DNA of 64,000 bases from Lagopus muta (Eukaryota): contig NC_064458.1 in the NCBI RefSeq assembly GCF_023343835.1, positions 4,793,829-4,857,828 of the forward strand, written 5' to 3'. The notes below the pieces were generated by a model, which was not told the origin of the DNA, did not search any database, and was given only the letters and a program-made list of their open reading frames with translations. Every line of letters starts with the position of its first letter. The stretch's first letter is position 1. Below are positions 9,401 to 49,994 of the stretch, piece by piece. The translations under genes were made by a program, and so were the position numbers.

Positions 9401-9506
9401 AGGAATTTCCTGCACTGCCACCCCTCACCAGCTGGATCCACCTCACCATTCCAGTGGATACAACACAGTCTGAGGGGGGAACAAGTGAGGACAAGAGGAA
9501 GGCAAG
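9401..9506 (+). CDS. Candidate coding exon 7: (E)EFPALPPLTSWIHLTIPVDTTQSEGGTSEDKRKA…
   Basis: Acceptor ctctccttctcaattccag|AG. Donor GCAAG|gtgaga. Phase-compatible with exon 6. No comparative support. Confidence 0.25.
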
Positions 9507-9944
9507 GTGAGACTGCAGGCTCAGGGTTGGGATCTGCACAGGGTGTTTTCCCAACCTGACAAGAGCCCATTGCACGTGAACACAGCACATGAGGGGTGGG
9601 ATGGTGCTCCTGGGAGCCCCCAATTCACAGGGCTGGCCCCTGTCCAGCCCTCAGGAAAGCAACCGCACAACCTGAGAGCTATGTGTGGAGAAAGCTGCGT
9701 TGCAACCAAGGGTCCTGGTCCGGGGTTGCAGGATACGGCCCCAAAGCCATCACCCACTCAGGCAGACCTCTCCCACTCTGTCCTTTCAGTCAGCTGCCAG
9801 CGATCCCAGGGGCATTTTCTGCCAAAAAAGAGCCTCAAGAAGAGAAGAGAAAATGCTCGATCAAAAGCAAAGCATCAGAGGTGGATCCAGCAGAGAGAGC
9901 GTGACCTCCAAGTGACAACGAAGAACAACACGGCAGAGTCGGCA

Positions 9945-12900
9945 GAGAAGATCTACATCTATCTGAAGAGAAGAGCTGAATCTATCTGAAGACAAGAGCT
10001 GAATCTATCTCAAGAGAAGAGCTACATCAATTTGAAGAGAAGATCAGCAACAATCTAAAGAGCTACATGTATCAGAAGAGCTACATCTGTCTGAAAAGAA
10101 GCGCTGCAACAACATGAATAGAAGAGCTGCATGCATGTGAAGAGCTACATCTGTCAGAAGGGAAGAGCAACATCTATCTGAAGAGAAGAGCTGGATCTAT
10201 CTCAAGAGAAGAGCTACATCTATCTGAAGAGCTACATCTGTCTGAAGAGAAGAGCTGAATCTATCTGAAGACAAGAGCTAAATCTATCTCAAGAGAAGAG
10301 CTACATCTATCTGAAGAGAAGAGCTACATCAGTCTGAAGAGCTACATCTGTCTGAAGAGAAGAGATGAATCTATCTGAAGAGAAGAGCTAAATCTATCTC
10401 AAGAGAAGAGCTACATCTATCTGAAGAGAAGAGCTAAACCCATCTAAAGAGCTACATCTGTCTGAAGAGAGGAGCTGAATCTATCTGAAGACAAGAGCTA
10501 AATCTATCTCAAGAGAAGAGCTATATCTATCTGAAGAGAAGAGCTACATCCATCTGAAGAGCTACATCTATCTGAAGAGAAGAGCTACATCTGTCTGAAG
10601 AGAAGAGCTACGTTTGTCTGAAGAGAAGATCTACATCTATCGGAACAGAACAGCCATATCTATCTGAGAAGAGCTACATGTATCTCAAGAGAAGAGCTAC
10701 ATTTACGTGAAGGGAATACCTACATCTACCTGAAGAGAAGAGCTACATCAATCTGAAGAGCTACATCTGTCTGAAGAGAAGAGCTACTTCTATCTGACAA
10801 GAAGAGCTGAATCTATCTGAAGACAAGAGCTGAATCTCAAGAGAAGAGCTACGTCTATCTGAAGAGCTACATCTGTCTGAAGACAAGAGCTACATTTATC
10901 TGAAGAGAATACCTACATCTACTTGAAGTGAATAGCTACATCTAACTCAGGAGTTACATGGGTCAGAAGAGCTGCATATCTCTGAAGAGCTCCATCTACG
11001 TTTGCCAGAAGAAAAGATCTATATCTATCTGACAAGAAGAGCTACATCTATCTGAAGAGAAGAGCTACATCTATCTGACGAGAAGAGCTGAATTTATCTG
11101 ATGACAAGAGCAGAATCTATCTCAAGAGAAGAGCTACATCTGTCTGAAGAGAAGAGCTACGTTTGTCTGAAGCGAAGATCTACAACTATCTGAACAGAAC
11201 AGCCATATCTATCTGAGAAGAGCTACATGTGTCTCAAGAGAAGAGCTACATTTACCTGAAGGGAAAACCTACATCTACCTGAAGAGAAGAGCTACATCAA
11301 TCTGAACAGCTACATCTGTCTGAAGAGAAGAGCTACTTCTATCTGACAATAAGAGCTGAATCTATCTGAAGACAAGAGCTGAATCTCAAGAAAAGAGCTA
11401 CATCCATCTGAAGAGCTACATCTGTCTGAAGAGAAGAGCTGAATCAATCTGAAGACAAGAGCTAAATCTATCTCAAGAGAAGAGCTACGTTTGTCTGAAG
11501 AGAAGAGCTACGTTTGTCTGAAGAGAAGATCTACATCTATCGGAACAGAACAGCCATATCTATCTGAGGAGAAGAGCTACATGTATCTCAAGAGAAGAGC
11601 TACATTTACGTGAAGGGAATACCTACATCTACCTGAAGAGAAGAGCTACATCAATCTGAAGAGCTACATCTGTCTGAAGAGAAGAGCTACTTCTATCTGA
11701 CAAGAAGAGCTGAATCTATCTGAAGACAAGAGCTGAATCTCAAGAAAAGAGCTACATCCATCTGAAGAGCTACATCTGTCTGAAGAGAAGAGCTACTTCT
11801 ATGTGACAAGAAGAGCTGAATCTATCTGAAGACAAGAGCTGAATCTCAAGAGAAGAGCTACATCTATCAGATGAGATGAGTGAGATGAGCTATATCCATC
11901 TGAAGAGCTACATCTATCTGAAGAGAAGAGCTACATCTGTCTGAAAAGAAGAGCTACATCAATCTGAAGACAAGAGCTGAATCTATCTCAAGGGAATAGC
12001 TACATCTATCTGAAGAGAAGAGCTACACCCATCTCAAGAGCTACATCTGTCTGAAGAGAAGACCTACATCTATCTGAAGAGAAGAGCAAAATCTATCTCA
12101 AGAGAAGAGCTACATCTATCTGAAGAGAAGAGCTACACCCATCTAAAGAGCTACATCTGTCTGAAGAGAAGACCTACATCTGTCTGAAGACAAGAGCTAA
12201 ATCTATCTCAAGAGAAGAGCTACATCTATCTGAAGAGAAGAGCTACATCAGTCTGAAGAGCTACATCAGTCTGAAGAGAAGAGATGAATCTATCTGAAGA
12301 GAAGAGCTAAATATATCTCAAGAGAAGAGCTACATTTTCCTGAAGGGAATACCTACATCTACCTGAAGAGAAGAGCTACATCAATTTGAAGAGAAGATCA
12401 GCAACAATCTAAAGAGCTACATGTATCAGAAGAGCTACATCTGTCTGAAAAGAAGCGCTGCAACAACATGAATAGAAGAGCTGCATGCATGTGAAGAGCT
12501 ACATCTGTCAGAAGGGAAGAGCAACATCTATCTGAAGAGAAGAGCTGAATCTATCTGAAGACAAGAGCTGGATCTATCTCAAGAGAAGAGCTACATCTAT
12601 CTGAAGAGAAGAGCTACATCCATCTGAAGAGCTACATCTGTCTGAAGAGAAGAGCTGAATCTATCTGAAGACAAGAGCTAAATCTATCTCAAGAGAAGAG
12701 CTACATCTGTCTGAAGAGAAGAGCTACATCAGTCTGAAGAGCTACATCTGTCTGAAGAGAAGAGATGAATCTATCTGAAGAGAAGAGCTAAATCTATCTC
12801 AAGAGAAGAGCTACATCTATCTGAAGAGAAGAGCTAAACCCATCTAAAGAGCTACATCTGTCTGAAGAGAGGAGCTGAATCTATCTGAAGACAAGAGCTA

Positions 12901-15900
12901 AATCTATCTCAAGAGAAGAGCTATATCTATCTGACGAGAAGAGCTACGTTTGTCTGAAGAGAAGATCTACATCTATCGGAACAGAACAGCCATATCTATC
13001 TGAGAAGAGCTACATGTATCTCAAGAGAAGAGCTACATTTACCTGAAGGGAATACCTACATCTACCTGAAGAGAAGAGCTACATCAATCTGAAGAGCTAC
13101 ATCTGTCTGAAGAGAAGAGCTACTTCTATCTGACAAGAAGAGCTGAATCTATCTGAAGACAAGAGCTGAATCTCAAGAGAAGAGCTACGTCTATCTGAAG
13201 AGCTACATCTGTCTGAAGACAAGAGCTACATTTATCTGAAGAGAATACCTACATCTACTTGAAGTGAATAGCTACATCTATCTCAAGAGTTACATGGGTC
13301 AGAAGAGCTGCATATCTCTGAAGAGCTCCATCTACATTTGCCAGAAGAAAAGATCTATATCTATCTGACAAGAAGAGCTACATCTATCTGACGAGAAGAG
13401 CTACATCTATCTGACGAGAAGAGCTGAATTTATCTGATGACATGAGCTACATCTATCTGAAGAGAAGAGCTACATCTATCTGAAGAGAAGAGCTACATCT
13501 GTCTGAAGAGAAGAGCTACGTTTGTCTGAAGCGAAGATCTATAACTATCTGAACAGAACAGCAGTATCTATCTGAGGAGAGCTACATGTGTCTGAAGAGA
13601 AGAGCTACATTTACCTGAAGGGAATACCTACATCTACCTGAAGAGAAGAGCTACATCAATCTTAAGAGCTACATCTGTCTGAAGAGAAGAGCTACTTCTA
13701 TCTGACAAGAAGAGCTGAATCTATCTGAAGACAAGAGCTGAATCTCAAGAGAAGATCTACGTCCATCTGAAGAGCTACATCTGTCTGAAGAGAACAGCTG
13801 AATCAATCTGAAGACAAGAGCTAAATCTATCACAAGAGAAGAGCTACATCGTTCTGAAGAGAAGAGCTACACCCATCTAAAGAGCTACATCTGTCTGAAG
13901 AGAAGAGCTGAATCTATCTGAAGACAAGAGCTAAATCTATCTCAAGAGAAGAGCTATATCTATCTGAAGAGAAGAGCTACGTTTGTCTGAAGAGAAGATC
14001 TACATCTATCGGAACAGAACAGCCATATCTATCTGAGAAGAGCTACATGTATCTCAAGAGAAGAGCTACATTTTCCTGAAGGGCATACCTACATCTACCT
14101 GAAGTGAAGAGCTACATCAATTTGAAGAGAAGATCAGCAACAATCTAAAGAGCTACATGTATCAGAAGAGCTACATCTGTCTGAAAAGAAGCGCTGCAAC
14201 AACATGAATAGAAGAGCTGCATGCATGTGAAGAGCTACATCTGTCAGAAGGGAAGAGCAACATCTATCTGAAGAGAAGAGCTGAATCTATCTGAAGACAA
14301 GAGCTGGATCTATCTCAAGAGAAGAGCTACACCTATCTGAAGAGCTACATCTGTCTGAAGAGAAGAGCTACTTCTGTCTGACAAGAAGAGTTGAATCTAT
14401 CTGAAGACAAGAGCTGAATCTCAAGAGAAGAGCTACATCTATCAGATGAGATGAGTGAGATGAGCTATATCCATCTGAAGAGCTACATCTATCTGAAGAG
14501 AAGAGCTACATCTGTCGGAAGAGAAGAGCTACAAATATCTAAAGAGAAGAGCTACATCTGTCTGAAAAGAAGAGCTACATCAATCTGAAGACAAGAGCTG
14601 AATCTATCTCAAGGGAATAGCTACATCTATCTGAAGAGAAGAGCTACACCCATCTCAAGAGCTACATCTGTCTGAAGAGAAGACCTACATCTATCTGAAG
14701 AGAAGAGCAAAATCTATCTCAAGAGAAGAGCTACATCTATCTGAAGAGAAGAGCTACACCCATCTCAAGAGCTACATCTGTCTGAAGAGAAGACCTACAT
14801 CTGTCTGAAGAGAAGACCTACATCTGTCTGAAGAGAAGACCTACCTAAACTTGAAGAGAATAGCTACATCTATCTCAAGAGATAAATCTATCAGAAGAGA
14901 AGAGCTGCATCTACATTTGCCTGAAGAGAAGAGCTACATCTATCTGACGACAAGAGTTGAATCTATCTGAAGAAAAGGGATGACTCCATCTCAAGAGAAG
15001 AGCTACATCTATCGGAAGGGAAGGGCTACATCCAACTGAAGAGCTACATCTATCTGAAGAGAAGTGCTACATCTATCTACAGAGAAGAGCTACATCACTC
15101 TGAAGAGAAGAGTTGCATCTCTCTGAAGACAAAAGCCATATCTATCTGAGGAGAAGAGCTAAATATATCTCAAGAGAAGAGCTACATCTGTCATAAGGGA
15201 AGAGCTGCTTCTATTTGAAGAGCTGCATCTACATTTGCCTGAAGAGAAGAGGTACATCTCTCTGACGAGAAGATCTGAATCTATCTCAAGAGAAGAGCTA
15301 CATCGATCTGAAGAGAAGAGCTACATCCATCTGAAGAGCTACATCTATCTGAAGAGAAGAGCTACGTTTGTCTGAAGAGAAGATCTACATCTATCTGAAC
15401 AGATCAGCCATATCTATCTGAGAAGAGCTACATGTGTCTCAAGAGAAGAGCTACATTTACCTGAAGGGAATATCTACATCTACCTGAAGAGAAGAGCTAC
15501 ATCAATCTGAAGAGCTACATCTGTCTGAAGAGAAGAGATGAATCTATCTGAAGAGAAGAGCTAAATATATCTCAAGAGAAGAGCTACATTTTCCTGAAAG
15601 GAATACCTACATCTACCTGAAGAGAAGAGCTACATCAATTTGAAGAGAAGATCAGCAACAATCTAAAGAGCTAAATGTATCAGAAGAGCTACATCTGTCT
15701 GAAAAGAAGCGCTGCAACAACATGAATAGAAGAGCTGCATGCATGTGAAGAGCTACATCTGTCAGAAGGGAAGAGCAACATCTATCTGAAGACAAGAGCT
15801 AAATCTATCTCAAGAGAAGAGCTACATCTATCTGAAGAGAAGAGCTAAACCCATCTAAAGAGCTACATCTGTCTGAAGAGAGGAGCTGAATCTATCTGAA

Positions 15901-18900
15901 GACAAGAGCTAAATCTATCTCATGAGAAGAGCTATATCTATCTGAAGAGAAGAGCTACATCCATCTGAAGAGCTACATCTATCTGAAGAGAAGAGCTACA
16001 TCTGTCTGAAGAGAAGAGCTACGTTTGTCTGAAGAGAAGATCTACATCTATCGGAACAGAACAGCCATATCTATCTGAGAAGAGCTACATGTATCTCAAG
16101 AGAAGAGCTACATTTACGTGAAGGGAATACCTACATCTACCTGAAGAGAAGAGCTACATCAATCTGAAGAGCTACATCTGTCTGAAGAGAAGAGCTACTT
16201 CTATCTGACAAGAAGAGCTGAATCTATCTGAAGACAAGAGCTGAATCTCAAGAGAAGAGCTACGTCTATCTGAAGAGCTACATCTGTCTGAAGACAAGAG
16301 CTACATTTATCTGAAGAGAATACCTACATCTACGTGAAGTGAATAGCTACATCTATCTCAAGAGTTACATGGGTCAGAAGAGCTGCATATCTCCGAAGAG
16401 CTCCATCTACATTTGCCAGAAGAAAAGATCTATATCTATCTGACAAGAAGAGCTACATCTATCTGAAGAGAAGAGCTACATCTATCTGACGAGAAGAGCT
16501 GAATTTATCTGATGACAAGAGCTGAAGCTATCTCAAGAGAAGAGCTACATCTATCTGAAGAGAAGAGCTACATCTGTCTGAAGAGAAGTGCTACGTTTGT
16601 CTGAAGCGAAGATCTACAACTATCTGAACAGAACAGCAATATCTATCTGAGGAGAGCTACATGTGTCTCAAGAGAAGAGCTACATTTACCTGAAGGGAAT
16701 ACCTACATCTACCTGAAGAGAAGAGCTACATCAATCTGAAGAGCTATATCTGTCTGAAGAGAAGAGCTACTTCTATCTGACAAGAAGAGCTGAATCTATC
16801 TGAAGACAAGAGCTGAATCTCAAGAAAAGAGCTACATCCATCTGAAGAGCTGCATCTGTCTGAAGAGAACAGCTGAATCAATCTGAAGAGAAGAGCTAAA
16901 TCTATCTCAAGAGAAGAGCTATATCTATCTGACGAGAAGAGCTACGTTTGTCTGAAGAGAAGATCTACATCTATCGGAACAGAACAGCCATATCTATCTG
17001 AGAAGAGCTACATGTATCTCAAGAGAAGAGCTACATTTTCCTGAAGGGCATACCTACATCTACCTGAAGTGAAGAGCTACATCAATTTGAAGAGAAGATC
17101 AGCAACAATCTAAAGAGCTACATGTATCAGAAGAGCTACATCTGTCTGAAAAGAAGCGCTGCAACAACATGAATAGAAGAGCTGCATGCATGTGAAGAGC
17201 TACATCTGTCAGAAGGGAAGAGCAGCATCTATCTGAAGAGAAGAGCTGAATCTATCTGAAGACAAGAGCTGGATCTATCTCAAGAGAAGAGCTACACCTA
17301 TCTGAAGAGCTACATCTGTCTGAAGAGAAGAGCTACTTCTGTCTGACAAGAAGAGTTGAATCTATCTGAAGACAAGAGCTGAATCTCAAGAGAAGAGCTA
17401 CATCTATCAGATGAGATGAGTGAGATGAGCTATATCCATCTGAAGAGCTACATCTATCTGAAGAGAAGACCTACATCTGTCTGAAGAGAAGAGCTACAAA
17501 TATCTAAAGAGAAGAGCTACATCTGTCTGAAAAGAAGAGCTACATCAATCTGAAGACAAGAGCTGAATCTATGTCAAGGGAATAGCTACATCTATCTGAA
17601 GAGAAGAGCTACACCCATCTCAAGAGCTACATCTGTCTGAAGAGAAGACCTACATCTATCTGAAGAGAAGAGCAAAATCTATCTCAAGAGAAGAGCTACA
17701 TCTATCTGAAGAGAAGAGCTACACCCATCTAAAGAGCTACATCTGTCTGAAGAGAAGACCTACATCTGCCTGAAGACAAGAGCTAAATCTATCTCAAGAG
17801 AAGAGCTACATCTATCTGAAGAGAAGAGCTACGCCCATCTCAAGAGCTACATCTGTCTGAAGAGAAGACCTACATCTGTCTGAAGAGAATACCTACTTAT
17901 ACTTGAAGAGAATAGCTACATCTATCTCAAGAGATAAATCTATCAGAAGAGAAGAGCTGCATCTACATTTGCCTGAAGAGAAGAGCTACATCTATCTGAC
18001 GACAAGAGTTGAATCTATCTGAAGAAAAGGGATGACTCCATCTCAAGAGAAGAGCTACATCTATCGGAAGGGAAGGGCTACATCCAACTGAAGAGCTACA
18101 TCTATCTGAAGAGAAGGGCTACATCTATCTACAGAGAAGAGCTACATCACTCTGAAGAGAAGAGTTGCATCTCTCTGAAGACAAAAGCCATATCTATCTG
18201 AGGAGAAGAGCTAAATATATCTCAAGAGAAGAGCTACATCTGTCATAAGGGAAGAGCTGCTTCTATTTGAAGAGCTGCATCTACATTTGCCTGAAGAGAA
18301 GAGCTACATCTCTCTGACGAGAAGAGCTACATCCATCTGAAGAGCTACATCTATCTGAAGAGAAGAGCTACGTTTGTCTGAAGAGAAGATCTACATCTAT
18401 CTGAACAGATCAGCCATATCTATCTGAGAAGAGCTACATGTGTCTCAAGAGAAGAGCTACATTTACCTGAAGGGAATATCTACATCTACCTGAAGAGAAG
18501 AGCTACATCAATCTGAAGAGCTACATCTGTCTGAAGAGAAGATCTACTTCTGTCTGACAAGAAGAGCTGAATCTATCTGAAGACAAGAGCTGAATCTCAA
18601 GAGAAGAGATACATCTATCTGATGAGATGAGTGAGACGAGCTATATCCATCTGAAGAGATACATCTATCTGAAGAGAAGAGCTACATCTGTCTGAAGAGA
18701 AGAGCTACAAATATCTAAAGAGAAGAGCTAAATCTGTCTGAAAAGAAGAGCTACATCAGTCTGAAGACAAGAGCTGAATCTATCTCAAGGGAATAGCTAC
18801 ATCTATCTGAAGAGAAGAGCTACACCCATCTCAAGAGCTACATCTGTCTGAAGAGAACACCTACATCTATCTGAAGAGAATACCTACCTATACTTGAAGA

Positions 18901-21836
18901 GAATCGCTACATCTATCTCAAGAGATAAATCTATCAGAAGAGAAGAGCTGCATCTACATTTGCCTGAAGAGAAGAGCTACATCTATCTGACGAGAAGAGC
19001 TGAATCTATCTGAAGACAAAAGCTGAATCTATCTCAGGAGAAGAGCTACATCGATCTGAAGAGGTATATCCATCTGAAGAGCTACATCTATCTGAAGAGA
19101 AGAGCTTCGTTTGTCTGAAGAGAAGATCTACATCTATCTGAACAGATCAGCCATATCTATCTGAGAAGAGCTACATGTGTCTCAAGAGAAGAGCTACATC
19201 AGTCTGATCAGCTACATCTGTCTGAAGAGAAGAGCTACTTCTATCTGACAAGAAGAGCTGAATCTATCTGAAGACAAGAGCTGAATCTATCACAAGAGAA
19301 GAGCTACGTCTATCTGATGAGATGAGTGAGATGAGCTATATCCATCGGAAGAGCTACATTTATCTGAAGAGAAGAGCTACATCTGTCTGAAGAGAAGAGC
19401 TACAAATATCTAAAGAGAAGAGCTACATCTGTCTGAAAAGAAGAGCTACATCAATCTGAAGACAAGAGCTAAATCTATCTCAAGGGAATAGCTACATCTA
19501 TCTGAAGAGAAGAGCTACGCCCATCTCAAGAGCTACATCTGTCTGAAGAGAAGACCTACATCTGTCTGAAGAGAAGACCTACCTAAACTTGAAGAGAATA
19601 GCTACATCTATCTCAAGAGATAAATCTATCAGAAGAGAAGAGCTGCATCTACATTTGCCTGAAGAGAAGAGCTACATCTATCTGACGACAAGAGTTGAAT
19701 CTATCTGAAGTAAAGGGATGACTCTATCTCAAGAGAGGAGCTCCATCTATCTGAAGGGAAGAGCTACATCCAACTGAAGAGCTACATCTATCTGAAGAGA
19801 AGTGCTACATCTATCTACAGAGAAGAGCTACATCAGTCTGAAGAGAAGAGTTGCATCTCTCTGAAGAGAAAAGCCATATCTATCTGAGGAGAAGAGCTAA
19901 ATATATCTCAAGAGAAGAGCTACATCTGTCATAAGGGAATAGCTGCTTCTATTTGAAGAGCTGCATCTACATTTGCCTGAAGAGAAGAGCTACATCTATC
20001 TGACGAGAAGAGCTGAATCTATCTGAAGACAACAGCAGTATCTATCTCAAGAGAAGAGCTACATCCATCTGAAGAGCTACATCCATATGAAGAGAAGAGC
20101 TACATCTGTCTAAAGAGAAGAGCGATATCAATATACAGTGAAGAGCTACATCTATCTGATGGGAAGAGCTACATCTGTCTGAAGAGAAGAGGTACGTTTG
20201 TTTGAAGAGAATATCTACATCTGTCTGAACAGAACAGCCATATCTATCTGAGGAGAGCTACATGTATCTCAAGAGAAGAGCTACATTTACCTGAAGGGAA
20301 TACCTACATCTACCTGAAGAGAAGAGCTACATCAATCTGAAGAGCAACATCTGTCTGAAGAGAAGAGCTACTTCTATCTGACAAGAAAAGCTGAATCTAT
20401 CTGAAGACAAGAGCTGAATCTCAAGAGAAGAGCTGTATCTATCTGATGAGATGAGTGAGATGAGCTATATCCATCTGAAGAGCTACATCTATCTGAAGAG
20501 AAGAGCTACATCTGTCTGAAGAGAAGAGGCACTAGTTTCTGAAGAAAAGAGCTGGATCTGTTTGTGGAGTAGAGCTTTCTGAAGAGAACTACATCTATCT
20601 GTAGATAAGCTACATCTGTCTGATGAGAAGAGCTGAATGTATCTGAAGAGAAGAGCCGAATATATCTCAAGAGAAGAGCTACATTTATCTGAAGAGAAGT
20701 GATACATTTGTCTGAAAGGAACAGCTACATCTATCTGAAGAGAAGATCTGCAACTGTCTCATGGAAAAAGCTACATCTATCTGAAGAGAAGAGCTACATC
20801 TATCTGAAGAGAAGAGCTACATCTTTTCCAAGAGAAGAGCTGCATTTATCTGAAGAGATGAGCTACATGTGTCTCAAGAGAAGAGCTGAATCTGTGTGAA
20901 GGGAAGAGCTACATCTCTCTGAATAGAAGAGCTACATCCATCTGAAGAGCTTCATTTATCTGAAGAAAAAAGGTACATCTTCCTGAAAAGAATAGCTACA
21001 TCTGTCTGAAGAGAGGAAATAAATCTGTCTGAAAAGAAGAGCTACATCTTCCCGAAGAGAAGAGCTGCATCTATTTGAAGAGCTGCATCTTTTTGAAGAG
21101 AAGAGCTGCATCTGTCTGAAGAAAAGAGCTACATCTGTCTGAAGAGAAGATCTACATCTATCTCAAGAGAAGAGCTTCATCTATCTGAAGAGAAGAGCTA
21201 TATCTTCCGGAAGAGAAGAGCTACATTTATATGAAGAAAAGAGTTGCATGTGTTTCAAGAGAAGAGCTGCATCTGTCTGAATAGAAGAGCTACATACAGC
21301 TGAAGAGCTACATCTACCTGAAGAGTAGAGCGACATCTATCTGAAGAGAAAAGCTAAATCTGTCTGCAGAGAAGAACTACATCTACCTGAAAAGAAGAGC
21401 TACATCTCTCTGAAGAGAGGAGCTGCACGTATTTGAAGACCTGCATCTACATTTGCCTGAAGAGAAGAGCTACATCTACCTGAAGAGAAGTGCTACATGT
21501 ATCTGAAGACAAGAGCTACATCTGTCTTAAGAACAGAATCTATCTGAAGACAAGAGCTGAATCTATCTCAAGAGAAGAGCTACATTTATCTAAAGAGAAG
21601 AACTACATCTATCTGAAAAGAAGAGCTACATCTATCTGAGGAGAAGATGTGCAACTGTCTTATGGAAAGATCTACATCTCTCTGAAGGGAAGAGCTACAT
21701 CTGTCTGAACACAAGAGCTACATCTATCTGAAGAGAAGTGCTACATCTATCTACAGAGAAGAGCTACATCAGTCAGAAGAGAAGAGTTGCATCTCTCTGA
21801 AGAGAAAAGCCATATCTATCTGAGGAGAAGAGCTAA
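9945..21836 (+). repeat. Satellite block 1, + orientation. The 23-bp monomer is about CTGAAGAGAAGAGCTACATCTAT with frequent 18-bp variants (CTGAAGAGCTACATCTGT). Organised in irregular higher-order repeats of roughly 1.4-2.4 kb. The last ~1.3 kb (20520-21725) is a more diverged sub-type.
   Basis: Direct reading. Marker segments recur: caatttgaagagaagatcagcaacaatctaaagagctacatgtatcagaag at 10030, 12380, 14110, 15640, 17090; catttacgtgaagggaatacctacatctacc at 10700, 11590, 16120. Confidence 0.9.
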
Positions 21837-21915
21837 ATATATATATATATTTATATTTATATATATATATTATATATATATATAAATATATATATATAAA
21901 TATATATAAATATAT
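21837..21915. repeat. TA-rich microsatellite (AT)n/(ATATAAAT)n at the head-to-head junction between satellite blocks 1 and 2
   Basis: atatatatatatttatatttatatatatatattatatatatatataaatatatatatataaatatatataaatatat. It appears to grow out of the gagctaaatatat monomer variant. Confidence 0.9.
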
Positions 21916-36900: not shown

Positions 36901-37012
36901 ATTCTCTTCCGATAGGTGTAGGTGTTCTCTTCAGACAGATGTAGCTCTTGAGATGGGTGTAGCTCTTCTCTTCAGATAGATGTAGCTATTCCCTTGAGAT
37001 AGATTCAGCTGC
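21916..37012 (-). repeat. Satellite block 2. The same 23-bp satellite in reverse-complement orientation (ATAGATGTAGCTCTTCTCTTCAG), with strong higher-order repeats of variable length (about 0.7-4 kb).
   Basis: Direct reading. The marker catctcactcatctcatcagat recurs at 23560, 24380, 26600, 29160, 33130, 35900, 36400. Confidence 0.9.
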
Positions 37013-40000
37013 TACATGAAGATGGTCTTCATTTGTCTGAAGAACTATATCTGTCTGAAGACAAGAGCTACATTTATCTGAAGAGAATACCTACATCTAC
37101 TTGAAGTGAATAGCTACATCTATCTCAAGAGTTACATGGGTCAGAAGAGCTGCATATCTCTGTAGAGCTCCATCTACATTTGCCAGAAGAGAAGATCTAT
37201 ATCTATCTGACAAGAAGAGCTACATCTTTTGGAAGAGAAGAGCTGCATTTGTCTGATGAGAAGAGCTGAATCTATCTGAAGACAAGAGCTGAATCTATCT
37301 CAAAGGAAGAGCTACATCGATCCGAAGAGCTAAATCTGTCTGAAGAGAACAGGTCCACCTATCGCAAGAGCTAAATAAATCTAAAGAGCTACATGTATCA
37401 GAAGAGCTACGTTTGTCTGAAGAGAACAGCTGCAACTATCTAAGTAGAAGAGCTGCATGCATGTGAAGAGCTACATCTATCTGAAGAGAAGAGGCATATG
37501 TGTCTGAAGAAAAGAGCTGCATCTGTTAGATGAGAACAGCTAAATCTTTCTGAAGAGAACTACATCTATCTGAAGAGAAGAGCTGCATCCGTCTAAAGAG
37601 AAGAGCTTCATCCATCTGAAGAGCTACATCTATCAGAAGAGAAGATCTACATCAATCGGAAGAGAAGAGCTACATATGTCTGAAGAAAAGAGCTACATCT
37701 GTCTGAAGAGAAGAGCTGCGTCTGTTTTAAGAGAAGAGCTACATCTATCTGAAGAGAAGAGCTTCATCTGTCTGAAGAGAAGTGCTACATCTAACTGGAA
37801 AGGAGTGCTGCATATTTCTGAACGGAAGAGCTACATCTATCTGAAGGGAAGAGCTACATCTATCTGAAGAGAAGTGCTACATTTATCTGAAGAGAATACC
37901 TACCTCTACTTGAAGAGAATAGCGACATCTATCTGACGACAAGAGTTGAATCTATCTGAAGAAAAGGGCTGACTCTATCTCAAGAGAAGAGCTACGTCTA
38001 TGTGAAGGGAAGAGCTACATCCATCTGAAGAGCTACATCTATCTGAAGAGAAGAGCTACATCTATCAGACGAGAAGAACTGAATCTATCTCAAGAGAAGA
38101 GCTACATTTATCTGAAGAGCTACAATTATGAGCTACATCTGTCTGAAGAGAAGAGCTACATCTGAAGAGAAGAGCTGCATCTGTTTGAAGACAAGAGCTA
38201 CATCTATGTGACGAGAAGAGGTACATCTGTCTGCAGAGACGAGCTACATCAACCCAAAGCGAAGAGCTACATGTATCTGAATAGAAGAGCTACATCTGTC
38301 TGAAGAGAAGAGCTACATCTATCTGAAGAGAAGAGACACATGTGTCTGAAGAAAAGAGCTGCATCTGTTTGAAGGGAAGAGCTAAATCTTTCTGAAGAGA
38401 ACTACATCTATCTGAAGAGAAGAGTTGCATATGTCAGAAGGGAAGAGCTACATCTATCTGAAGAGAAGATCTACATCAATCTGAAGAGAAGAGCTTCATC
38501 TGTCTGAAGAGAAGAGCTACATGCATCTGAAGAGAAGAGCTACATCTATCTGAAGAGAAATGCTACATCTATCAGAAGAGAAGAGCTACGTTTATCTGAA
38601 GAGAAGAGCTATATATCTCTCAAGAGAAGAGCTGCATCTGTCTGAAGAGAAGTACATGTGTCTGAAGAGAAGAGCTACATCTGTCTCAATAGAACAGCTA
38701 CATCCTTCTGAAAAGCTACATTTACATGAAGAGAAGGGCGACATCTATCTAAAGAGAAAAGCTACATCTATCTGAAGAGAAAAGCTACATCTGTCTGAAG
38801 TGCTACACCTATTTGAAGATCTGCATCTACATTTCCCTGACGAGAAGAGCTACATCTACCGGAAGATAGGAGCTACATCTGTCTAAAGAGAAGAGCTACA
38901 TCTGTCTGAAGAGAAACGCTACATCTGTCTGAAGGAAAGAGCTACATCTATCTGAAGAGAAGATCTACATCTATCTGAAGAGAAGTTCTACATCTGTCTG
39001 AAGGAAAGAGCTACATCTGTCTGAAGAGAAGAGCTACATCTATCCGAATAGAAGATCTACATCTATCTGAAGAGAAGAGGCACTAGTTTCTGAAGAAAAG
39101 AGCTGGATCTGTTTGTGGAGTAGAGCTTTCTGAAGAGAACTACATCTATCTGTAGATAAGCTACATCTGTCTGATGAGAAGAGCTGAATCTATCTGAAGA
39201 GCCGAATCTATCTCAAGAGAAGAGCTACATTTATCTGAAGAGAAGTGATACATTTGTCTGAAAGGAACAGCTACATCTATCTGAAGAGAAGATCTGCAAC
39301 TGTCTCATGGAAAAAGCTACATCTATCTGAAGAGAAGAGCTACATCTTTTCCAAGAGAAGAGCTGCATTTATCTGAAGAGATGAGCTACATGTGTCTCAA
39401 GAGAAGAGCTGAATCTGTGTGAAGGGAAGAGCTTCATCTCTCTGAATAGAAGAGCTACATCCATCTGAAGAGCTTCATCTATCTGAAGAAAAAAGGTACA
39501 TCTTCCCGAAAAGAATAGCTACATCTGTCTGAAGAGAGGAAATAAATCTGTCTGAAAAGAAGAGCTACATCTTCCCGAAGAGAAGAGCTGCATCTATTTG
39601 AAGAGCTGCATCTTTTTGAAGAGAAGAGCTGCATCTGTCTGAAGAAAAGAGCTACATCTGTCTGAAGAGAAGATCTACATCTATCTCAAGAGAAGAGCTT
39701 CATCTATCTGAAGAGAAGAGCTATATCTTCCGGAAGAGAAGAGCTACATTTATATGAAGAAAAGAGTTGCATGTGTTTCAAGAGAAGAGCTGCATCTGTC
39801 TGAATAGAAGAGCTACATACAGCTGAAGAGCTACATCTACCTGAAGAGTAGAGCGACATCTATCTGAAGAGAAAAGCTAAATCTGTCTGCAGAGAAGAAC
39901 TACATCTACCTGAAAAGAAGAGCTACATCTCTCTGAAGAGAGGAGCTGCACGTATTTGAAGACCTGCATCTACATTTGCCTGAAGAGAAGAGCTACATCT

Positions 40001-43000
40001 ACCTGAAGAGAAGTGCTACATGTATCTGAAGACAAGAGCTACATCTGTCTTAAGAACAGAATCTATCTGAAGACAAGAGCTGAATCTATCTCAAGAGAAG
40101 AGCTACATTTATCTAAAGAGAAGAACTACATCTATCTGAAAAGAAGAGCTACATCTATCTGAGGAGAAGATGTGCAACTGTCTTATGGAAAGATCTACAT
40201 CTCTCTGAAGGGAAGAGCTACATCTGTCTGAACACAAGAGCTACATCTGTGTGAAGAGAAGAGCTACATTTATCTAAAGAGAAGATCTATATATGTATGA
40301 AGGGAACAGCTACATCTGTCTGACGGGAAGAGCTACATCTATCTAAAGAGAAGATCAATATATGTCTGAAGGGAACAGCTACATCTGTCTGAAGGGAAGA
40401 GCTACATCTATCTAAAGAGAAGATCAATATATGTCTGAAGGGAACAGCTACATCTATCTGAAGAGAAGAGCGACACCTACCTGAAGAGAAATGCTAAATC
40501 TGTCTGAAGAGAAGATCTACATCTATCTGAAGTGAACAGCTACACCTGACTGAAGGGAAGAGCTACATCTGTCTGAAGAGAAGAGCTCCATTTGTCTGAA
40601 GACTTGATCTGCAACTGTCTCATGGAAAGAGCTACATGTATCTGAAGAGAAGAGCTACAACAGTCTGAAGAGAAGAGAAGCATCTGTCTGAAGAGAAGAG
40701 GTACATGTGTCTGAAGACAAGGGCTACATCTGTCTGACAGAAAGAGCTACATCTTTCTGAAGAGAAGAGCTACAGCGATCTGAAGAGAAGAGCTACAGCT
40801 ATCTGAAGAGAAGATCTACATCTATCTGAAGAGAAAAGGTACATCTGTCTGAAGAGAAGAGCTACATCTGCCTGAAGGAAAGAGCTACATCTGTCTGCAG
40901 AGAAGATCTACATCTATCTGAAGAGCTACATCCGTCTGAAGAGAAGAACTACATCTGTCTGATGAGAAGAGCTTCATCTATCGGAATAGAATATCTACAT
41001 CTGTCTGAAGAGAAAATCTACATCTATCTGAAGAGAAAAGCTACCTCTGTCAGAAGAGAAGAGCTACATCTGTCTAAAGAGAAGAGCGATATCAATATAC
41101 AGTGAAGAGCTACATCTATCTGAAGAGAAGAGCTACAACTGTATGATGAGAAGAGCTGAATCTATCTGAAGAGCTGAATCTATCTTAAGAGAAGAGCTAC
41201 ATTTATCTGAAGAGGAGATCTGCAACTGTCTCATGGAAAAAGCTACATCTATCTGAACAGAAGAGTAACATCAGTCTTTAGAGCAGAGCTACATCTGTCT
41301 GAACACTAGAGCTACATCTATCTGAAGAGAAGATCTACATCTATCTCAAGAGAAGAATTACATCTGCCTGAAGAGAAGTGCTAAAGCTCTCTGAAGAAAA
41401 GAACTATATCTGACTGAAGACAATAGCTACATCTGTCTGAACGGAAGAGCTTCATCTGTCTGTGGAGAAGAGCTGCATCTATTTCAAGAGCTGTATCTAC
41501 ATTTGCCTGAAGAGAAGAAATACATCCATCTGAAGAGCTACATCTTTCTGAAGAGAAGTGCTACATCTATCAGCAGAGAAGAGGTATATCTATCTGAAGA
41601 TAAGAGCTACATATTTCTGAATAGAAGAGCTACATCTGTCTGAAGTGAAGGGCTACATCTATCTGAAGAGAAGATCTACATGCATCTGAAGAGAAGACCT
41701 ATATCTGTGACAAGATAAGAGCTACGTCTATGTGATTAGAAGAGCTACAACTGTCTGCAGAGTTCTAGATCTATGTGAAGTGAAGAGCTACATCAATCTG
41801 AATAGAAGAGCTACATCTCTTAGCAGAGAAGATCCATATCTATGTGAAGAGAAGAGGTACATCTATCTGAAGGGAAGAGCTACATCTGTCTGAAGTGAAC
41901 AGCTACATCTATCTGAAGATAAGAGCTATATCCATCTGAAGAGATACAGCTGTCTAAAGAGAAGTGCTACATCTATCAGAAGAGAAAAGGTATATCTATC
42001 TTAAGATAAGAGATACATATTTCTGAATAGAAGAGCTACATCTGTCTCAAGTGAAGAGCTGCATCTATCTGAAGAGAAGATCTACATTTATCTGAAGAGC
42101 TACATCTGTCTGAACAGAAGAGCTACATCTATCTGAAGAGAAGAGGCACATGTGTCTGAAGAAAAGAGCTGCAACGGTTTGAAGGGAAGAGCTGAATCTT
42201 TCTGAAGAGAACTACATCTATCTGAAGAGAAGTGTTGCATCTGTCAGAAGGGAAGAGCTACATTTCTCAGAAGAGAAGATCTACATCTATCTGAAGAGAA
42301 CAGCTACACCTGACTGAAGAGAAGAGATGCATCTGTCTGAAGAGAAGAGATGCATCTGTGTGAAGAGAAGAGCTCCATTTGTCTGAAGGGAAGATATACA
42401 TCTATCTGAAGAGAAGAGCTACATCTGTCTGAAGAGACGATCTGCAACTGTCTCATGGAAAGAGCTACATGTATCTGAAGAGAAGAGCTACAACTGACTG
42501 AAGAGACGCATCTGTCAGAAGAGAAGAGCTACATCTGTCTGAAGAGAAGATCTACATCTACTTGAAGAGCTGCATCTACATTTACCTGAAGATAAGAGCT
42601 ACATCTATCTGAAGACAGGAGTTGAATCTATTTCAAGAGAATAGCTACATCTATCTGTAGAGAAGAGCTACATCCATCTGAAGGGCTACATCTTTTTGAA
42701 GAGAAGTACTACATCTGTCTGAAGAGAAGAGCTACAAATATCTAAAGAGAAGAGCTACATCTGTCTGAAAAGAAGAGCTACATCAATCTGAAGACAAGAG
42801 CTGAATCTATCTCAAGAGAAGATCTACATCTATCTGAAGCGAAGAGCTACATCTGACTGAAGAGATTATCTGCAACAGTCTTATGGAAAGAGCTACATGT
42901 ATCTGAGGAGAAGAGCTACAACTGTCAGAAGAGAAGAGCTGCGTCAGTCTGAAGACAAGGGCTACATCTGTCTGAAGAGAAGAGATGCATCTGTCTGAAG

Positions 43001-46000
43001 AGAAGAGCTACATCTGTCTGAAGACAAGGGCTACATCTGTCTGAAGAGAAGAGATGCATCTGTCTGAAGAGAAGAGCTACATCTATCTGAATAGAAGATC
43101 TACATCTCTCTGAAGAGAAGAGCTACATCTGTATGATGAGAAGAGCTGAATGTATCTGAAGACAAGAGCTGAATCTATCTCAAGAGAAGAGCTACATCTA
43201 TCTGAAGAGGAGATCTGCAACTGTCTCATGGAAAGAGCTACATCTATCTGAAGAGAAGAGCTACATCTGTCTTTAGAGAAGAGCTGCATCCGCCTGAACA
43301 CAAGAGCTACATCTATCTGAAGAGAAAAGGTACATCTATTTGAGGAGAAGAGCTACATCTATCTGAAGAGAAGAGCGACATCTGTCTGAAGAGAAGAGCT
43401 ACATCTAACTGAACGGAAGAGTTAAATCTATCTGAAGAGAAGAGCTAAATCTATCTCAAGAGAAGAGCTGCATCTGTCTGAACACAAGAGCTACATCAAT
43501 CAGAAGAAAAACCGTACATCTATCTGCAGAGAAGAGCTACATCTATCTGAAGAGAAGATCTACATCTACCTGATGAGAAGAGCTACATCTATCTGAAGAG
43601 AAGAGCTACATCTATCTGAAGAGAAGAGCTACGTCTGTCTGAACAGAAGAGCTACATCTGTATGAAGAGAAGATCTACAACTGTCTGCAGAGAAGTTCTA
43701 GATCTATGTGAAGAGAAGAGCTACATCTTTCTAAAGAGAAGAGCTACGTCTATCAAAAGAGAACAGATACATTTGTCATCAGAGAAGAGCTACATATATC
43801 TGTAGGAAAGAGCAACATCTGACTGAAGATAAGAGCCTCATCTGTCTGTAGGGAAGAGCTACATCTATCTGAAGAGAAGATCTAAATCTATCTGAAGAGA
43901 AAAGCTACATCAGTCTGAAGAGATGAGCTACATCTATCTGAAAAGAAGAGATTCATCTGTATGAAGAGAAGAGCTACATCTGTCTGCAGAGAAGAGCTAC
44001 ATCTATCTGAAGAAAAGTACTACATTTATGTGAAGAGAAGAGCTACATCCATTTGAAGAGAAGCCATGCATCTGTCTGAAGAGAAGAGCTACATCTTTCT
44101 GAAGAAAATACCCACTTCTACATGAAGAGAATAGCTGCAACTCTCCCAAGAGATACAACTGTCAGAAGAGCTTCGTCTATTTGAAGAGCTGCATCTATAT
44201 TTGCCTGAAGACAAGTGCTACATCTATCTGACGAGAAGAGTGACATCTATCTGAAGAGAAGAGCTACATCTCTCTGAAGAGATACATCTATCTGAAGAGA
44301 AAAGCTGCATCAGTCTGAAGAGATGAGCTACATCTATCGGAAAAGAAGAGATTCATCTGTCTGAAGAGAAGAGCTGCATCTGTGTGAAGAGAAGAGCTAC
44401 ATCTACCTCCAGAGAAGTGCTAAATCTTTCTGAAGAGAAGATCTTTATCTATCTGAATAGAAGAGCTACATCTGTTTGCAGAGAAGATCTACAGCTATGT
44501 GAAGAGTAGAGTTACATCTGTCTGAAGAGAAGATCTACATTTATCTGAAGGGAAGAGCTACATCCATTTGAAGAGAAGAGATGCATCTGTCTGAAGACAA
44601 GAGCTACATCTGTCTGAAAAGAAGAGCTACGTCTTTCTGAAGAGAGGTGCTGCATCTGTCTGAAGAGAAAAGCTACATCTATCGGAAGAGAAGAGCTACA
44701 TCTGTCTGAAGACAAGAGCTACATCTGTCTGAAGGGAAGAGCTACATCTATCAGAAGAGAAGAGCTGAATCTGTCTGAAGAGAAGATCTACATACATCTG
44801 AAGAGAGGTCTACATTTATCTGAATGAAAGAGCTACATCTATCTGAAGAGAATGGCTACATTTGTATGAAGAGAAGAGCTACATCTGTCTGAAGATCTAC
44901 ATCTGTCTGAAGAGAAGAGCTACATTTGTCTGAAAAGAAGAGCTACATCTATCTGTGGACAAGAGCTACATCTATCTGAATAGAAGAGGTACATCTCTTT
45001 GCAGAGAAGATCTACATCTATGTGAAGAGCTACATCTATCTGAAGAGTAGAGCAACATCCATCTGAAGATAAGAGCTACATCTGACTGAAGATAAGAGCG
45101 TCATCTGTCTGAAGTGAATAGCTAGATCTTTCTGAAGAGAAGAGCTGCATCTGTCTGAAGAGAAGAGCTACATCTGTCTGAAGACAAGAGCTACATCTGT
45201 CTAAAGAGAAGAGCAACATCTATCTGAAGATAAGAGCTACATCCATCTGAACAGATACATCTTGCTAAAGAGAAGTGCTACATCTATTAGAAGAGAAGTA
45301 CATCTGTCTGAAGTTAAAAGCTACATATTTCTGAATAGAAGGACTACATCTGTCTGAAGTGAAGTGCTACATCTATCTGAAGATCTACATTTATTACTTC
45401 TAAATGAAGAGAATAGCTACAACTCTCCCAAGAGATACATCTGTCAGAAAAGCTTCATCTATTTCAAGAGCTGCATCTACATTTGCCTGAAGAGAAGTGA
45501 TACATCTATCTGACGAGAAGAGCAACATCTATCTGAAGATCTACATCTCTCTGAAGAGAAGTGCTAAATCTATCTGAAGAGAAGAGCTTCATCCATCTGA
45601 AGAGATACATCTTTCTGAAGAGAAGAGCTACATCTATCAGAAGAGAAGAGGTACATCTGTCTGAAGAGAAGAGCTACATCTGTATGAAGATAAGAGCTAC
45701 ATCCATCTTAAGAGCTACATCTGTCTGAAGAGAAGAGCTACATCTGTCTGAAGAGCTGCATCTGTCTGAAGAGAAGAGCTACATCTATCTGAAGGGAAGA
45801 GCTGAATCTGTCTGAAGGGAAGAGCTACATCAATCTGAAGATAAGAGCTACATCCATCTGAAGAGCTACATCTTTTTGAAGAGATCAGCTAAATCTGTCG
45901 GAAAAGAAGAACTACATCTGCCTGAAGAGAAGAGATACATCTATCTGAATAGAAGAGCTACATCTGTCTGCAGAGAAGATCTACATCTATGTGAAGATAA

Positions 46001-47098
46001 GAGCTATATCTTTCTCAAGAGAAGACCTACATCTATCTGAAGGTAAAAATTACATCCATCTGAATTGCTACATTTGTCTGAAGTGAAAATCTACATCTAT
46101 CAGAATGGAAGAGATATATGTGTCTGAAGAGAAGATCTACATATATCTGTCTGAAGAGAAGAGCTACACCTGTCTGAAGAGTTACATCTATCTGAAGAGA
46201 AGAGCTTCATCCATCTGAAGAGATACATCTTTCTGAAGAGAAGAGCTACATCTATCAGAAGAGAAGAGGTACATCTGTCTGAAGGGAAGACCTGCATATA
46301 TCTGTCTGAAGAGAAGAGCTACATCTATCTGAAGTGAATAGCTAGATCTTTCTGGAGAGAAGAGCTACATCTGTCTGATGAGGAGAGCTACATGTATCTG
46401 AAGAGCTACTTGTATCTGAAGAGAAGTGCTACATTTATCTGAAGAGAAGATTTCCATCTGAAGAGCTACATCTGTCTGAAGGGAAGAGCTACCTCTATCT
46501 GAAGTGGTACATCTTTCTCAAGAGCAAAATGTATCAGAGGATAAGAGCTACATCTGTTTAAAAAGCCACTTTTGTATGAATAGAAGAGGTGTATCTGTCT
46601 CAAAGCTACATATATCTGAAGAGCTGGATTTATCAAAAGAGCTACATCTGTCTGAAGAGTAGAGCTGCATCTCTCTGAAGAGAAGAGGTACATCTACCTG
46701 AACAGAAAAGCTACATCTCTCTGAAGAGCTGCATCTATCTGAAAAACAGAGTTATACCTGTCTGAAGAGAATAGCTAAATCTATCTGATGGGAAGAGCTT
46801 GATCTATCTGAAGATAAGTGCTGCATCAATCTGAAGGGAAGAGCTGCATGTGTCTGAAGAGAAGAGCTACATTTACCTGTCGAGAAGAGCTACATCTACC
46901 TATCTGAAGAGAAGACCTACATCTGCCTATCTGAATTTCTTCATCTTCCTATCTGATGAGCTACATCTGCTTGTGTGAAGAGCTCCATCTACCTGAAGAG
47001 CTACATCTGCCTACCTATATATCTGAAGAACTACATCTACGTACCTATCTCTCTGAAGATCTACATCTATCTCTGAAGAGCTACATCTATCTGAAGAA
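37013..47098 (+). repeat. Satellite block 3, back in + orientation. Its monomers are noticeably more heterogeneous than in blocks 1 and 2. It contains a ~1.2 kb segment (39068-40255) duplicated from 20520-21725.
   Basis: Direct reading. The orientation switch occurs at 37012/37013 (…gatagattcagctg|ctacatgaagatggtcttcatttgtctgaag…). Confidence 0.9.
37017..37031. other. Small palindrome TGAAGA-TGG-TCTTCA exactly at the block 2/block 3 orientation switch
   Basis: Read directly. 6-bp arms with a 3-bp spacer. Confidence 0.6.
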
Positions 47099-48545: not shown

Positions 48546-48559
48546 TTTCTTCACAAAGC

Positions 48560-49895: not shown

Positions 49896-49994
49896 TGTCT
49901 CGCTCCAATTTATAGGAGGGAGAGGAGGTTCTTTTATTATCTATATACCCGGCGTGAGATTAAGAAGCACCGGTTCAAATGTTGGTCCGACCAG

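Follow-up and report, generated by a model that had tools for sequence, protein, structure and literature searches.

The 64-kb window of the Lagopus muta genome analysed here holds a single tandem-repeat family, whose ~1,600 monomers (about 1,625) fill 37,155 bp at 9944-47098. The initial annotation had placed this repeat between a protein-coding gene and a retroelement gene array, and homology searches identify these neighbours as a CCDC81-like gene on the left and an ERNI-like array on the right. The features of the locus are as follows.

2979-8969, plus strand: CCDC81-like gene, left neighbour, short and complete (Pfam, homologues, tblastn exon map)
9944-20790, plus strand: type-A part of block 1, 23/18-bp monomers with a loose 110/87-bp periodicity
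20792-21836, plus strand: type-B tail of block 1, adjoining junction J1
21837-21915, no strand: junction J1 (plus to minus), a 79-bp (AT)n tract
21916-37012, minus strand: block 2, type-A monomers, more homogenised than any other part of the array
21918-22172, minus strand: rcX, left arm of an inverted pair whose partner lies at 37036-37290
37005-37035, no strand: junction J2 (minus to plus), with the switch at a self-complementary AGCT core (CAGCTG)
37013-47098, plus strand: block 3, a type-A island at 37036-37349 and the remainder type-B
47099-47258, plus strand: 3' 160 bp of a solo LTR, common to the chicken locus
49895-64000, minus strand: ERNI-like tandem array, right neighbour, in 4794-bp units, 2.8 kb past the satellite

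The CCDC81-like gene encodes a protein with the Pfam domain HU-CCDC81_euk_2 (1.7e-18), and tblastn placed its exons at about 2979-3104, 3286-3378, 4187-4366, 4541-4813, 8029-8121 and 8793-8969. The intron at 4814-8028 holds ERV and CR1 insertions, and the array begins about 1 kb downstream of the gene. Genes of this family are multicopy and found mostly on unplaced scaffolds. To the right, each 4794-bp unit of the ERNI-like array consists of an LTR and a 515-aa ENS-1/ERNI-like ORF, and three such units are 100% identical. The ORF shares 97.7% identity with Lagopus muta and 96.1% with L. leucura (range within Lagopus, 94-98%), and 83% with chicken ERNI; the presence of CR1 and ERNI sequences alone does not mark a window as chicken.

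The satellite consensus, GAAGAGCTACATCTATCTGAAGA, is identical across all three blocks. A 23-bp unit had been proposed at the outset; judged by spacing, this length holds for 72-75% of the monomers and fails for the 16% that are 18-mers, which correspond to the GAAGAGCTACATCTATCTGAAGA unit without GAAGA. Besides the 23- and 18-bp spacing, blocks 1 and 2 display looser periodicities of 110 and 87 bp. TRF reported a period-23 array at 9944-21842 (536 copies, score 9836), a period-23/46 array at 21910-37004 with the reverse complement as its consensus, and another period-23 array at 37039-46450, along with the (AT)n at 21837-21915; the array scores ranged from 8,113 to 11,932. The repeat is thus a long head-to-tail array of one unit, the arrangement by which a satellite or tandem repeat is recognised.

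One family switching strand twice was the central proposal of the initial annotation, and it is borne out by TRF, by a scan with the monomer core and by AT skew. The blocks run in plus (9944-21836), minus (21916-37012) and plus (37013-47098) orientation. When both strands were scanned with an 18-nt core (GAAGAGCTACATCTATCT, at most 5 mismatches), we found 506 plus-strand matches in 9947-21844, 644 minus-strand matches in 21931-37014 and 433 plus-strand matches in 37039-47092. At the same threshold no block contained a match on the wrong strand, and the 26.8 kb of flanking DNA yielded one match, at 1881, which we put down to chance. AT skew moved from +0.25 to -0.22 to +0.20, flipping at the block boundaries. 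The positions first assigned to the blocks proved correct to 1-2 bases. Finally, in a self dot-plot (k=20), suggested from the start as a check on the strand assignments, blocks 1 and 3 gave forward diagonals and the antiparallel signal was confined to block 2 compared with blocks 1 and 3. The antiparallel diagonals are present and the strand switches stand.

The array is non-coding: stop codons interrupt its unit on both strands (TGA on one, two TAGs on the opposite one), and no ORF within the 37 kb is longer than 75 aa. A chimera of 4 of the longest satellite ORFs (2 per strand) had no match among 5.8 billion proteins.

The repeat had also been thought to match no classical chicken satellite, and its period does differ and the one W motif compared is absent; since the genome is that of a grouse and the chicken locus is without the repeat, such a comparison has little bearing. 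Like the array described here, CNM/PO41 and W sate-21 are galliform tandem repeats with a short unit and a higher-order organisation (PMC9974502), but their units of 41 bp (chicken CNM/PO41, set apart by period) and 21 bp (sate-21, the XhoI/EcoRI family; PMC9974502) differ from the 23/18 bp of the grouse repeat. The sate-21 unit (TTTTCnnnnnGAAAAnnnnnn, motif TTTTC-N5-GAAAA) had no match on either strand of the array. CNM and sate-21 units have a conserved dyad symmetry (PMC9974502). For the grouse monomer, single-strand DNA folding was weaker than that of shuffled sequences (z = +1.6 to +3.4), and hairpin or dyad potential was rejected on this basis. A literature search returned no match to the exact monomer string and nothing relevant on galliform or Lagopus satellites, and one- and two-monomer patterns had no match in JGI metagenome contigs.

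The corresponding loci of chicken and guinea fowl (Numida) reveal what the site looks like without the array. The chicken locus is colinear with the window up to 9934 and picks up again at 47098; for Numida the corresponding positions are 9827 and 47279. Between these points lie 880 bp in chicken and about 430 bp in guinea fowl, in both cases ordinary sequence without satellite. A satellite profile HMM found no significant match in either locus, a core search of the chicken locus (at most 3 mismatches) gave none, and no proto-repeat was detected in the chicken locus, the Numida locus or other LTR copies, a result compatible with growth of the array in situ and with its seeding from another locus. 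A solo LTR is present at the same site in chicken and in the window, which identifies these loci as true homologues, and the site is empty in Numida. Because both outgroup sites are without satellite, the array is a derived insertion or expansion that arose once the chicken lineage had branched off. Its gain went together with a loss of about 0.9 kb, made up of about 330 bp of unique sequence and ~550 bp from the 5' side of the LTR, and the satellite now stands in place of this 5' part. Since CCDC81-like genes are multicopy, the chicken and Numida loci could be close paralogues and not strict orthologues, in which case the array would be dated relative to the duplication and not to speciation. 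The turkey CCDC81-like locus was set aside as a distant paralogue of which more than half is Ns. ERNI-like loci of Tympanuchus and Centrocercus showed no satellite within +/-10 kb; being further copies of a dispersed element, they were discarded as evidence on this site.

The position of the right end of the array, inside an LTR, raises the question of where the monomer came from. By hand alignment, stretches of the LTR are loosely monomer-like (CTGAAGA...CTAC, with 22-bp spacing), a resemblance that is suggestive. A search by nhmmer with a 69-bp satellite profile returned nothing at E<0.05 and no match inside the LTR copies of the window or of chicken. With no significant profile match in any LTR copy, derivation of the monomer from the LTR was set aside as unsupported. 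The array shares with the LTR-retrotransposon-derived satellites treated in the available part of PMC7004042 its right end within an LTR and the loose likeness of that LTR to the monomer, and differs from them in that the satellite profile HMM matches no LTR copy here.

Sequence identity within and between the blocks shows that the array is layered. Neighbouring monomers are ~65% identical at a shift of 23, and kb-scale copies in blocks 1 and 2 are 96-100% identical; these two blocks are organised as higher-order repeats and block 3 is not. The type-A part of block 1 contains kb-scale internal duplications at offsets of about 2965, 3075 and 5411 bp, with best tile identities of 86-99.8% within the block and 82-98.4% against block 2 in inverted orientation. 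Block 2 harbours a 3971-bp duplication, in which 27780-30000 matches 31751-33971 at 99.2%, and many of its tiles are 99.5-100% identical. For blocks 1 and 2 compared in inverted orientation, the best tile identity ranges from 82% up to 98.5% and is typically 84-96%. Block 3 outside the type-A island is nearly pure 23-mer, its best copies are 75-85% identical (about 80%), it has no kb-scale repeat, and the final 0.65 kb of the array (46450-47098) is degenerate. Given kb-scale copies at 99-100% identity in blocks 1 and 2 versus 75-85% in block 3, the first two blocks are young and homogenised and the third is old and divergent. The block 1 tail at 20792-21762 repeats 39315-40285 of block 3 in direct orientation at 99.2% identity, which marks it as a recent duplication or conversion tract beside J1.

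The junctions bear on how the strand switches arose. At J1 the breakpoints are symmetric, reading ...GAGCTAAAT(AT)nATGTAGCTC... with GCTACAT on the left side, and at J2 a GAAGATGGTCTTC micro-palindrome follows the AGCT core. Block 2 is bounded by an inverted-repeat pair of 255 bp (94.5% identity). As block 1 contains one copy of this 255-bp segment per ~3 kb, the pair could coincide with the edges of block 2 by chance, with an estimated probability of roughly 1 in 10. We rejected a perfect palindrome or fold-back duplication at J1 or J2, for the arms are not mirror-symmetric about either junction: the top anti-diagonals are centred away from both, and of the 12 best inverted matches found up to 4 kb from either junction, none fell on the zero-offset diagonal. 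Nor does a single one-step inversion account for the whole arrangement, as undoing block 2 restores continuous monomers at neither junction and the reversal would juxtapose two copies of one 255-bp segment. The switches more plausibly required a minimum of two or three rearrangements, and not a single clean inversion of the cut-and-paste type. A head-to-head join of GCTACAT to ATGTAGC may have created a palindromic ATAT seed at J1 that later expanded into (AT)n, and J2 may have formed by a join of the microhomology type at the palindromic AGCT. Recombination between monomer tracts of opposite orientation could in addition have shifted the block boundaries, with the 255-bp pair as a candidate substrate.

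Taken together, we consider it likely that this is a lineage-specific non-coding satellite (a large minisatellite) array of the grouse genome, in an intergenic interval with a CCDC81-like gene on one side and a solo LTR on the other. Several other readings were weighed against it.

There is a small chance that the satellite is real and one or both strand switches are assembly artefacts, introduced by a misjoin within tangled repeats or a chimeric read. The 1-kb segment directly before J1 with its 99.2% identical counterpart in block 3 fits such an error, J1 consists of (AT)n, which sequences poorly, and the three 100% identical 4.8-kb units of the right flank denote either very recent amplification or collapse/over-polishing. 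However, neither junction is a palindrome centre, unlike a missed-adapter or fold-back product, and the failure of the junctions to act as centres of arm symmetry is evidence against a fold-back read artefact. Blocks 1 and 2, each 99-100% identical internally, have also diverged from one another to the degree given above (best inverted match 98.5%, typically 84-96%), which fits long separate evolution in opposite orientation and not a mis-oriented contig. Moreover, a 99% repeat of 1 kb would be too short to mislead accurate reads of 10-20 kb.

We regard it as similarly unlikely that the array is the satellite of a centromere or pericentromere in grouse, perhaps on a microchromosome, with the alternating blocks and the young-core/old-flank layering as products of centromere-type evolution. 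Chicken CENP-A domains span about 30-40 kb, near the size of the array. Within the array, blocks that are young and homogenised adjoin one that is old and divergent, chicken centromeres are likewise layered and directionally expanding (PMC9974502), and inversions are frequent in mouse centromeric satellites (PMC12583555). The neighbourhood, with a multicopy gene family and a tandem ERV-like array, resembles the pericentromeric heterochromatin of chicken dot chromosomes (PMC9974502). Against this, the array is just 37 kb long and is bracketed, inside the 64 kb, by ordinary genes and transposable elements to its left and right, its monomer is without dyad symmetry, and divergent edges around a homogenised interior are expected of any tandem array. 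Most acrocentric centromeres of chicken come with CNM arrays and with cores of (TTAGGG)n or simple repeats (PMC9974502), but (TTAGGG)2 is absent from the whole window and TRF found no 41-bp array of the CNM type. Centromeric satellites do show strand switches (PMC12583555), yet such switches are not diagnostic of them, and none of the features measured in this window favours a centromeric role.

Less probable again is a specific form of this idea, that the array is a new chromosome-specific centromere or pericentromere-boundary satellite, born in grouse after the chicken split and inserted in the gene/LTR interval beside ERV-like units, for which the three tandem Kronos ERVs that form the centromere core of chicken chr32 provide a parallel (PMC9974502). 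If true, the array would illustrate the beginnings of a bird centromere satellite, with a date attached and the ancestral site known in its empty state.

The least credible reading is a functional RNA or regulatory locus, either through read-through over the convergent blocks 1 and 2 to give long double-stranded RNA and small RNAs (these blocks are long inverted repeats, locally 84-98% identical, and the CCDC81-like gene is directed into the array from 1 kb away) or through roughly 660 WGATAR and 350 CAGATG motifs serving as a transcription-factor sink (WGATAR occurs 659 times in the array and 71 times in the flanks), but motif counts of this size are simply what one motif in each monomer gives, related species that retain the flanking gene do not have the array, and the single strand of the array is less structured than shuffled sequence.

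This lineage-specific array could have grown, and kept its homogeneity, through unequal exchange, slippage during replication and gene conversion, each acting inside an orientation block. Most likely it has no sequence-specific cellular function beyond that of repetitive, possibly heterochromatic, DNA. In mouse, homogeneous satellite arrays frequently switch strand, which is attributed to non-allelic recombination (PMC12583555). The minor and major satellites of the T2T mouse genome (PMC12583555) share with the grouse array head-to-tail short monomers with sub-variants and multi-monomer periodicities, as well as kb-scale near-identical duplications, divergent edges and orientation blocks with sharp junctions. 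They differ in scale, reaching hundreds of kb to Mb compared with 37 kb here, where the monomer is very short (23/18 bp), and in setting, as the grouse array sits between a gene and an LTR and not in a megabase heterochromatin block. The euchromatic satellites of Tribolium, as portrayed in the available part of PMC11610590, also lie beside genes and transposable elements and seem to be recent arrivals or expansions; in comparison with those arrays, one locus is seen here.

The array is one further lineage-specific satellite, and would gain greater importance only if it were centromeric or a source of small RNAs. It is at the same time a clean, fully assembled example with both flanks, an empty ancestral site in two outgroups and a solo LTR that anchors homology. 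Its old and young layers can be separated, and both inversion junctions can be read to the base. We suggest that it may be used as a case study of how a short-unit satellite is seeded, expands, becomes homogenised and flips its orientation.

Tandem Repeats Finder returned four features for the window.

Tandem features of the window
9944-21842: period-23 array, 536 copies, consensus AGAGAAGAGCTACATCTATCTGA
21837-21915: (AT)n tract
21910-37004: period-23/46 array, its consensus the reverse complement of that of the 9944-21842 array
37039-46450: period-23 array

An 18-nt core, GAAGAGCTACATCTATCT, was scanned on both strands with up to 5 mismatches. Matches fell into three orientation blocks: 506 on the plus strand at 9947-21844 (block 1, 9944-21836), 644 on the minus strand at 21931-37014 (block 2, 21916-37012) and 433 on the plus strand at 37039-47092 (block 3, 37013-47098). 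No match lay on the wrong strand in any of the three, and the 26.8 kb of flanks held a single one, by chance. In a 20-mer dot-plot blocks 1 and 3 matched in forward orientation, antiparallel signal arose only between block 2 and the other two, and the sign of the AT skew flipped where the satellite orientation switches. These results, including the self dot-plot proposed as a check, confirm the satellite array and the two strand switches claimed in the initial annotation, whose block coordinates proved right to within 1-2 bases.

The array had been placed between a gene and a retroelement array, and both neighbours were found. On the left, a short CCDC81-like gene, complete and plus-stranded, ends ~1 kb from the satellite; it has six exons within 2979-8969 (from the exon map and homologues) and a Pfam HU-CCDC81_euk_2 match (1.7e-18). 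CR1 ORF2 fragments are also present in the window and mark it as avian. The intron at 4814-8028 includes ~3.1 kb that is not in the chicken homologue. It carries ERV gag/LTR pieces (4832-5379, 6455-7156) 87-88% identical to the 4.8-kb unit of the right flank, a match that runs on at ~76% to 7590, together with a minus-strand CR1 ORF2 fragment of 293 aa (5652-6533). Within the intronic LTR copy lies a further tandem repeat (7077-7199; 43 bp x 2.9), which has no relation to the 23-bp satellite. Local duplications lie near the first exons (2723-2993 versus 3667-3943, 84%; 3535-3634 versus 3929-4028, 95%). A turkey paralogue is located 65-87 kb from the start of record CM000980.2, near a chromosome end, and the chicken and guinea-fowl homologues are on unplaced scaffolds of 102-105 kb. 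Such positions hint that, in Galliformes, this family of short genes resides where assembly is difficult, possibly close to telomeres or in pericentromeric DNA. At the guinea-fowl locus a 7TM gene (olfactory-receptor-like, PF13853; 2902-3543) also lies 6.5 kb upstream of the CCDC81-like gene, and the first 2 kb of the window showed nothing equivalent.

On the right, tandem 4794-bp units extend from 49895 to the window end (starts 49895, 54689 and 59483). Each contains an LTR and a 515-aa minus-strand ORF of the ENS-1/ERNI family, without pol or env. The ORF is 97.7% identical to Lagopus muta XP_048793152, 94-96% to L. leucura proteins, 88% to Tympanuchus and 83% to a chicken cluster that includes 'Early response to neural induction ERNI'; a stand-alone L. 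leucura contig of 4793 bp matches the whole unit at 92-95%. These identities point to a grouse host, most likely a Lagopus species, and not to chicken. Over 9,312 bp the units, at least 2.9 copies of them, agree at 100.000%; either they were amplified very recently or the repeat was collapsed or over-polished. The first unit is directly preceded by a low-complexity, purine-rich stretch of ~620 bp, of (GAAAA/GAAAG)n type (49277-49900), where several frames yield spurious 'KEKKRKEKK' ORFs of 200 aa.

The consensus GAAGAGCTACATCTATCTGAAGA is common to all three blocks. Among ~1,625 monomers, 1,217 are 23-mers and 262 are 18-mers that lack the GAAGA pentamer. In blocks 1 and 2 the commonest spacings between 18-mers are 110 bp (4x23+18) and 87 bp, and block 3 is nearer to a pure 23-mer array. 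The array has a GC content of 40%, is CpG-poor (observed/expected 0.13) and contains 452 occurrences of a 9-nt mirror purine tract, GAAGAGAAG; purines and pyrimidines on the monomer strand stand at 58:42. Since the unit has stops on both strands (TGA on one, two TAGs on the other), the longest ORF across 37 kb is only 75 aa. The unit has no dyad symmetry and its single-stranded DNA is less stably folded than shuffled controls (z = +1.6 to +3.4).

As initially proposed, the satellite matches no classical chicken family. CNM, PO41 and sate-21, whose features are described in PMC9974502, have periods of 41 or 21 bp rather than 23/18 bp, and unlike these named galliform satellites the array lacks both TTTTC-N5-GAAAA and dyad symmetry; all three were excluded on these grounds. 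Neither the exact monomer string nor keywords retrieved a report in the literature, scans of JGI metagenomes for the monomer gave 0 matches, as did its translated ORFs against 5.8 billion proteins, and the satellite was absent within +/-10 kb of two further grouse ERNI-like loci (Tympanuchus and Centrocercus).

The chicken locus with the closest CCDC81-like protein (L002, an unplaced GRCg7b scaffold) and the guinea-fowl (Numida) locus L006 are both colinear with the window.

Colinear segments
L002 11758-13039: window 8713-9934
L002 13921-14453: window 47098-47598
L002 14821-15982: window 48394-49444
L006 12209-14030: window 8149-9827
L006 14462-14981: window 47279-47746

Between the anchors chicken has 880 bp, made up of ~330 bp of unique sequence and a solo LTR's 5' portion (~550 bp); the same interval in the window is 37.2 kb of satellite. 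The LTR has an identical insertion point in chicken (L002 ~13370-14085) and the window, where only its 3' 160 bp is left (47099-47258) and satellite stands in place of the rest. The shared insertion point therefore marks the two loci as true homologues, younger than the guinea-fowl split; in guinea fowl (L006 ~14425) the LTR site is empty and the satellite also absent. The core had 0 matches at up to 3 mismatches in the chicken locus, and a satellite profile HMM gave no significant match in either locus. Because these colinear sites lack satellite or monomer-like sequence, the array is a derived feature of the grouse lineage, or is at any rate younger than the separation of its locus from those of chicken and guinea fowl, and ~0.9 kb was lost together with its appearance. 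Derivation of the monomer from the LTR is not supported: a hand alignment looked loosely monomer-like, but the profile search did not bear this out.

Matching of 400-bp tiles to their best copies elsewhere in the array, together with high-stringency self-BLAST, distinguished two kinds of array.

Array types
9944-20790 (plus), all of block 2 (minus) and a 300-bp island at 37036-37349: type A, with kb-scale duplications
37350-47098: type B, without long-range structure, best copies 75-85% identical

In block 2, 27780-30000 duplicates 31751-33971 (99.2%) and 30800-31722 duplicates 33871-34793 (99.8%), and many tiles reach 99.5-100% identity. Block 1 has duplication offsets of ~2965, 3075 and 5411 bp (up to 99.8%). 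Best inverted identities between blocks 1 and 2, 82-98.5%, are below the within-block values. The final 0.65 kb of block 3 is visibly degenerate. Block 1 ends anomalously: its last 1 kb (20792-21762) belongs to type B and is a 99.2% direct copy of 39315-40285.

The first junction (J1, 21837-21915) reads ...GAGCTAAAT-(AT)n-ATGTAGCTC..., breaking after GCTACAT in both arms around a 79-bp AT microsatellite. The second (J2, 37005-37035) reads ...GATAGATTCAGC / TGCTACATGAAGATGGTCTTCATTTGTCTGAAGA..., switching at a self-complementary AGCT core (CAGCTG) followed by a micro-palindrome, GAAGATGGTCTTC. Neither is the centre of arm symmetry: within 4 kb of the junctions, 0/12 of the strongest inverted matches lay on the zero-offset diagonal. 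This excludes simple fold-backs at both, be they biological in origin or produced by a missed adapter in a read. An inverted 255-bp pair (21918-22172 and 37036-37290, 94.5% identical) forms the starts of blocks 2 and 3 and bounds block 2. A single inversion was also rejected; its reversal fails to restore continuous monomers at J1 or J2 and would set the two 255-bp copies side by side. We therefore infer several events: arms joined head to head at J1, where the ATAT centre later grew into (AT)n; at J2, a join of the microhomology type within AGCT; and, beside J1, a recent duplication or conversion of 1 kb. Block boundaries could also have shifted by recombination between inverted monomer tracts, a mechanism put forward for mouse, where homogeneous satellites are often inverted (PMC12583555). 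The 99% duplicate adjoining J1 and the 100% identity of the 4.8-kb units are what an assembly artefact might produce, but the blocks have diverged from one another yet are homogeneous inside, and no palindrome is centred on either junction; we regard an artefactual origin of the switches as unlikely.

Taken together, the array is probably a satellite or large minisatellite of an ordinary kind, non-coding and lineage-specific, homogenised within its orientation blocks, presumably by unequal exchange and conversion inside each, and partly flipped by what would be a few rearrangements. Its layering and inversions, in a neighbourhood that combines an ERV array with multicopy genes, are reminiscent of chicken dot chromosomes, for which pericentromeric heterochromatin and an ERV-core centromere have been described (PMC9974502). 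Given its small size, the ordinary sequence on both sides and the absence of telomeric and CNM companions, there is little probability that it would prove centromeric or pericentromeric. That it is a functional RNA or motif-sink locus is very improbable. As a lineage-specific satellite, the array would be an unsurprising, tidy and datable case of how a satellite arises and becomes inverted, for which the solo LTR offers a useful phylogenetic anchor.
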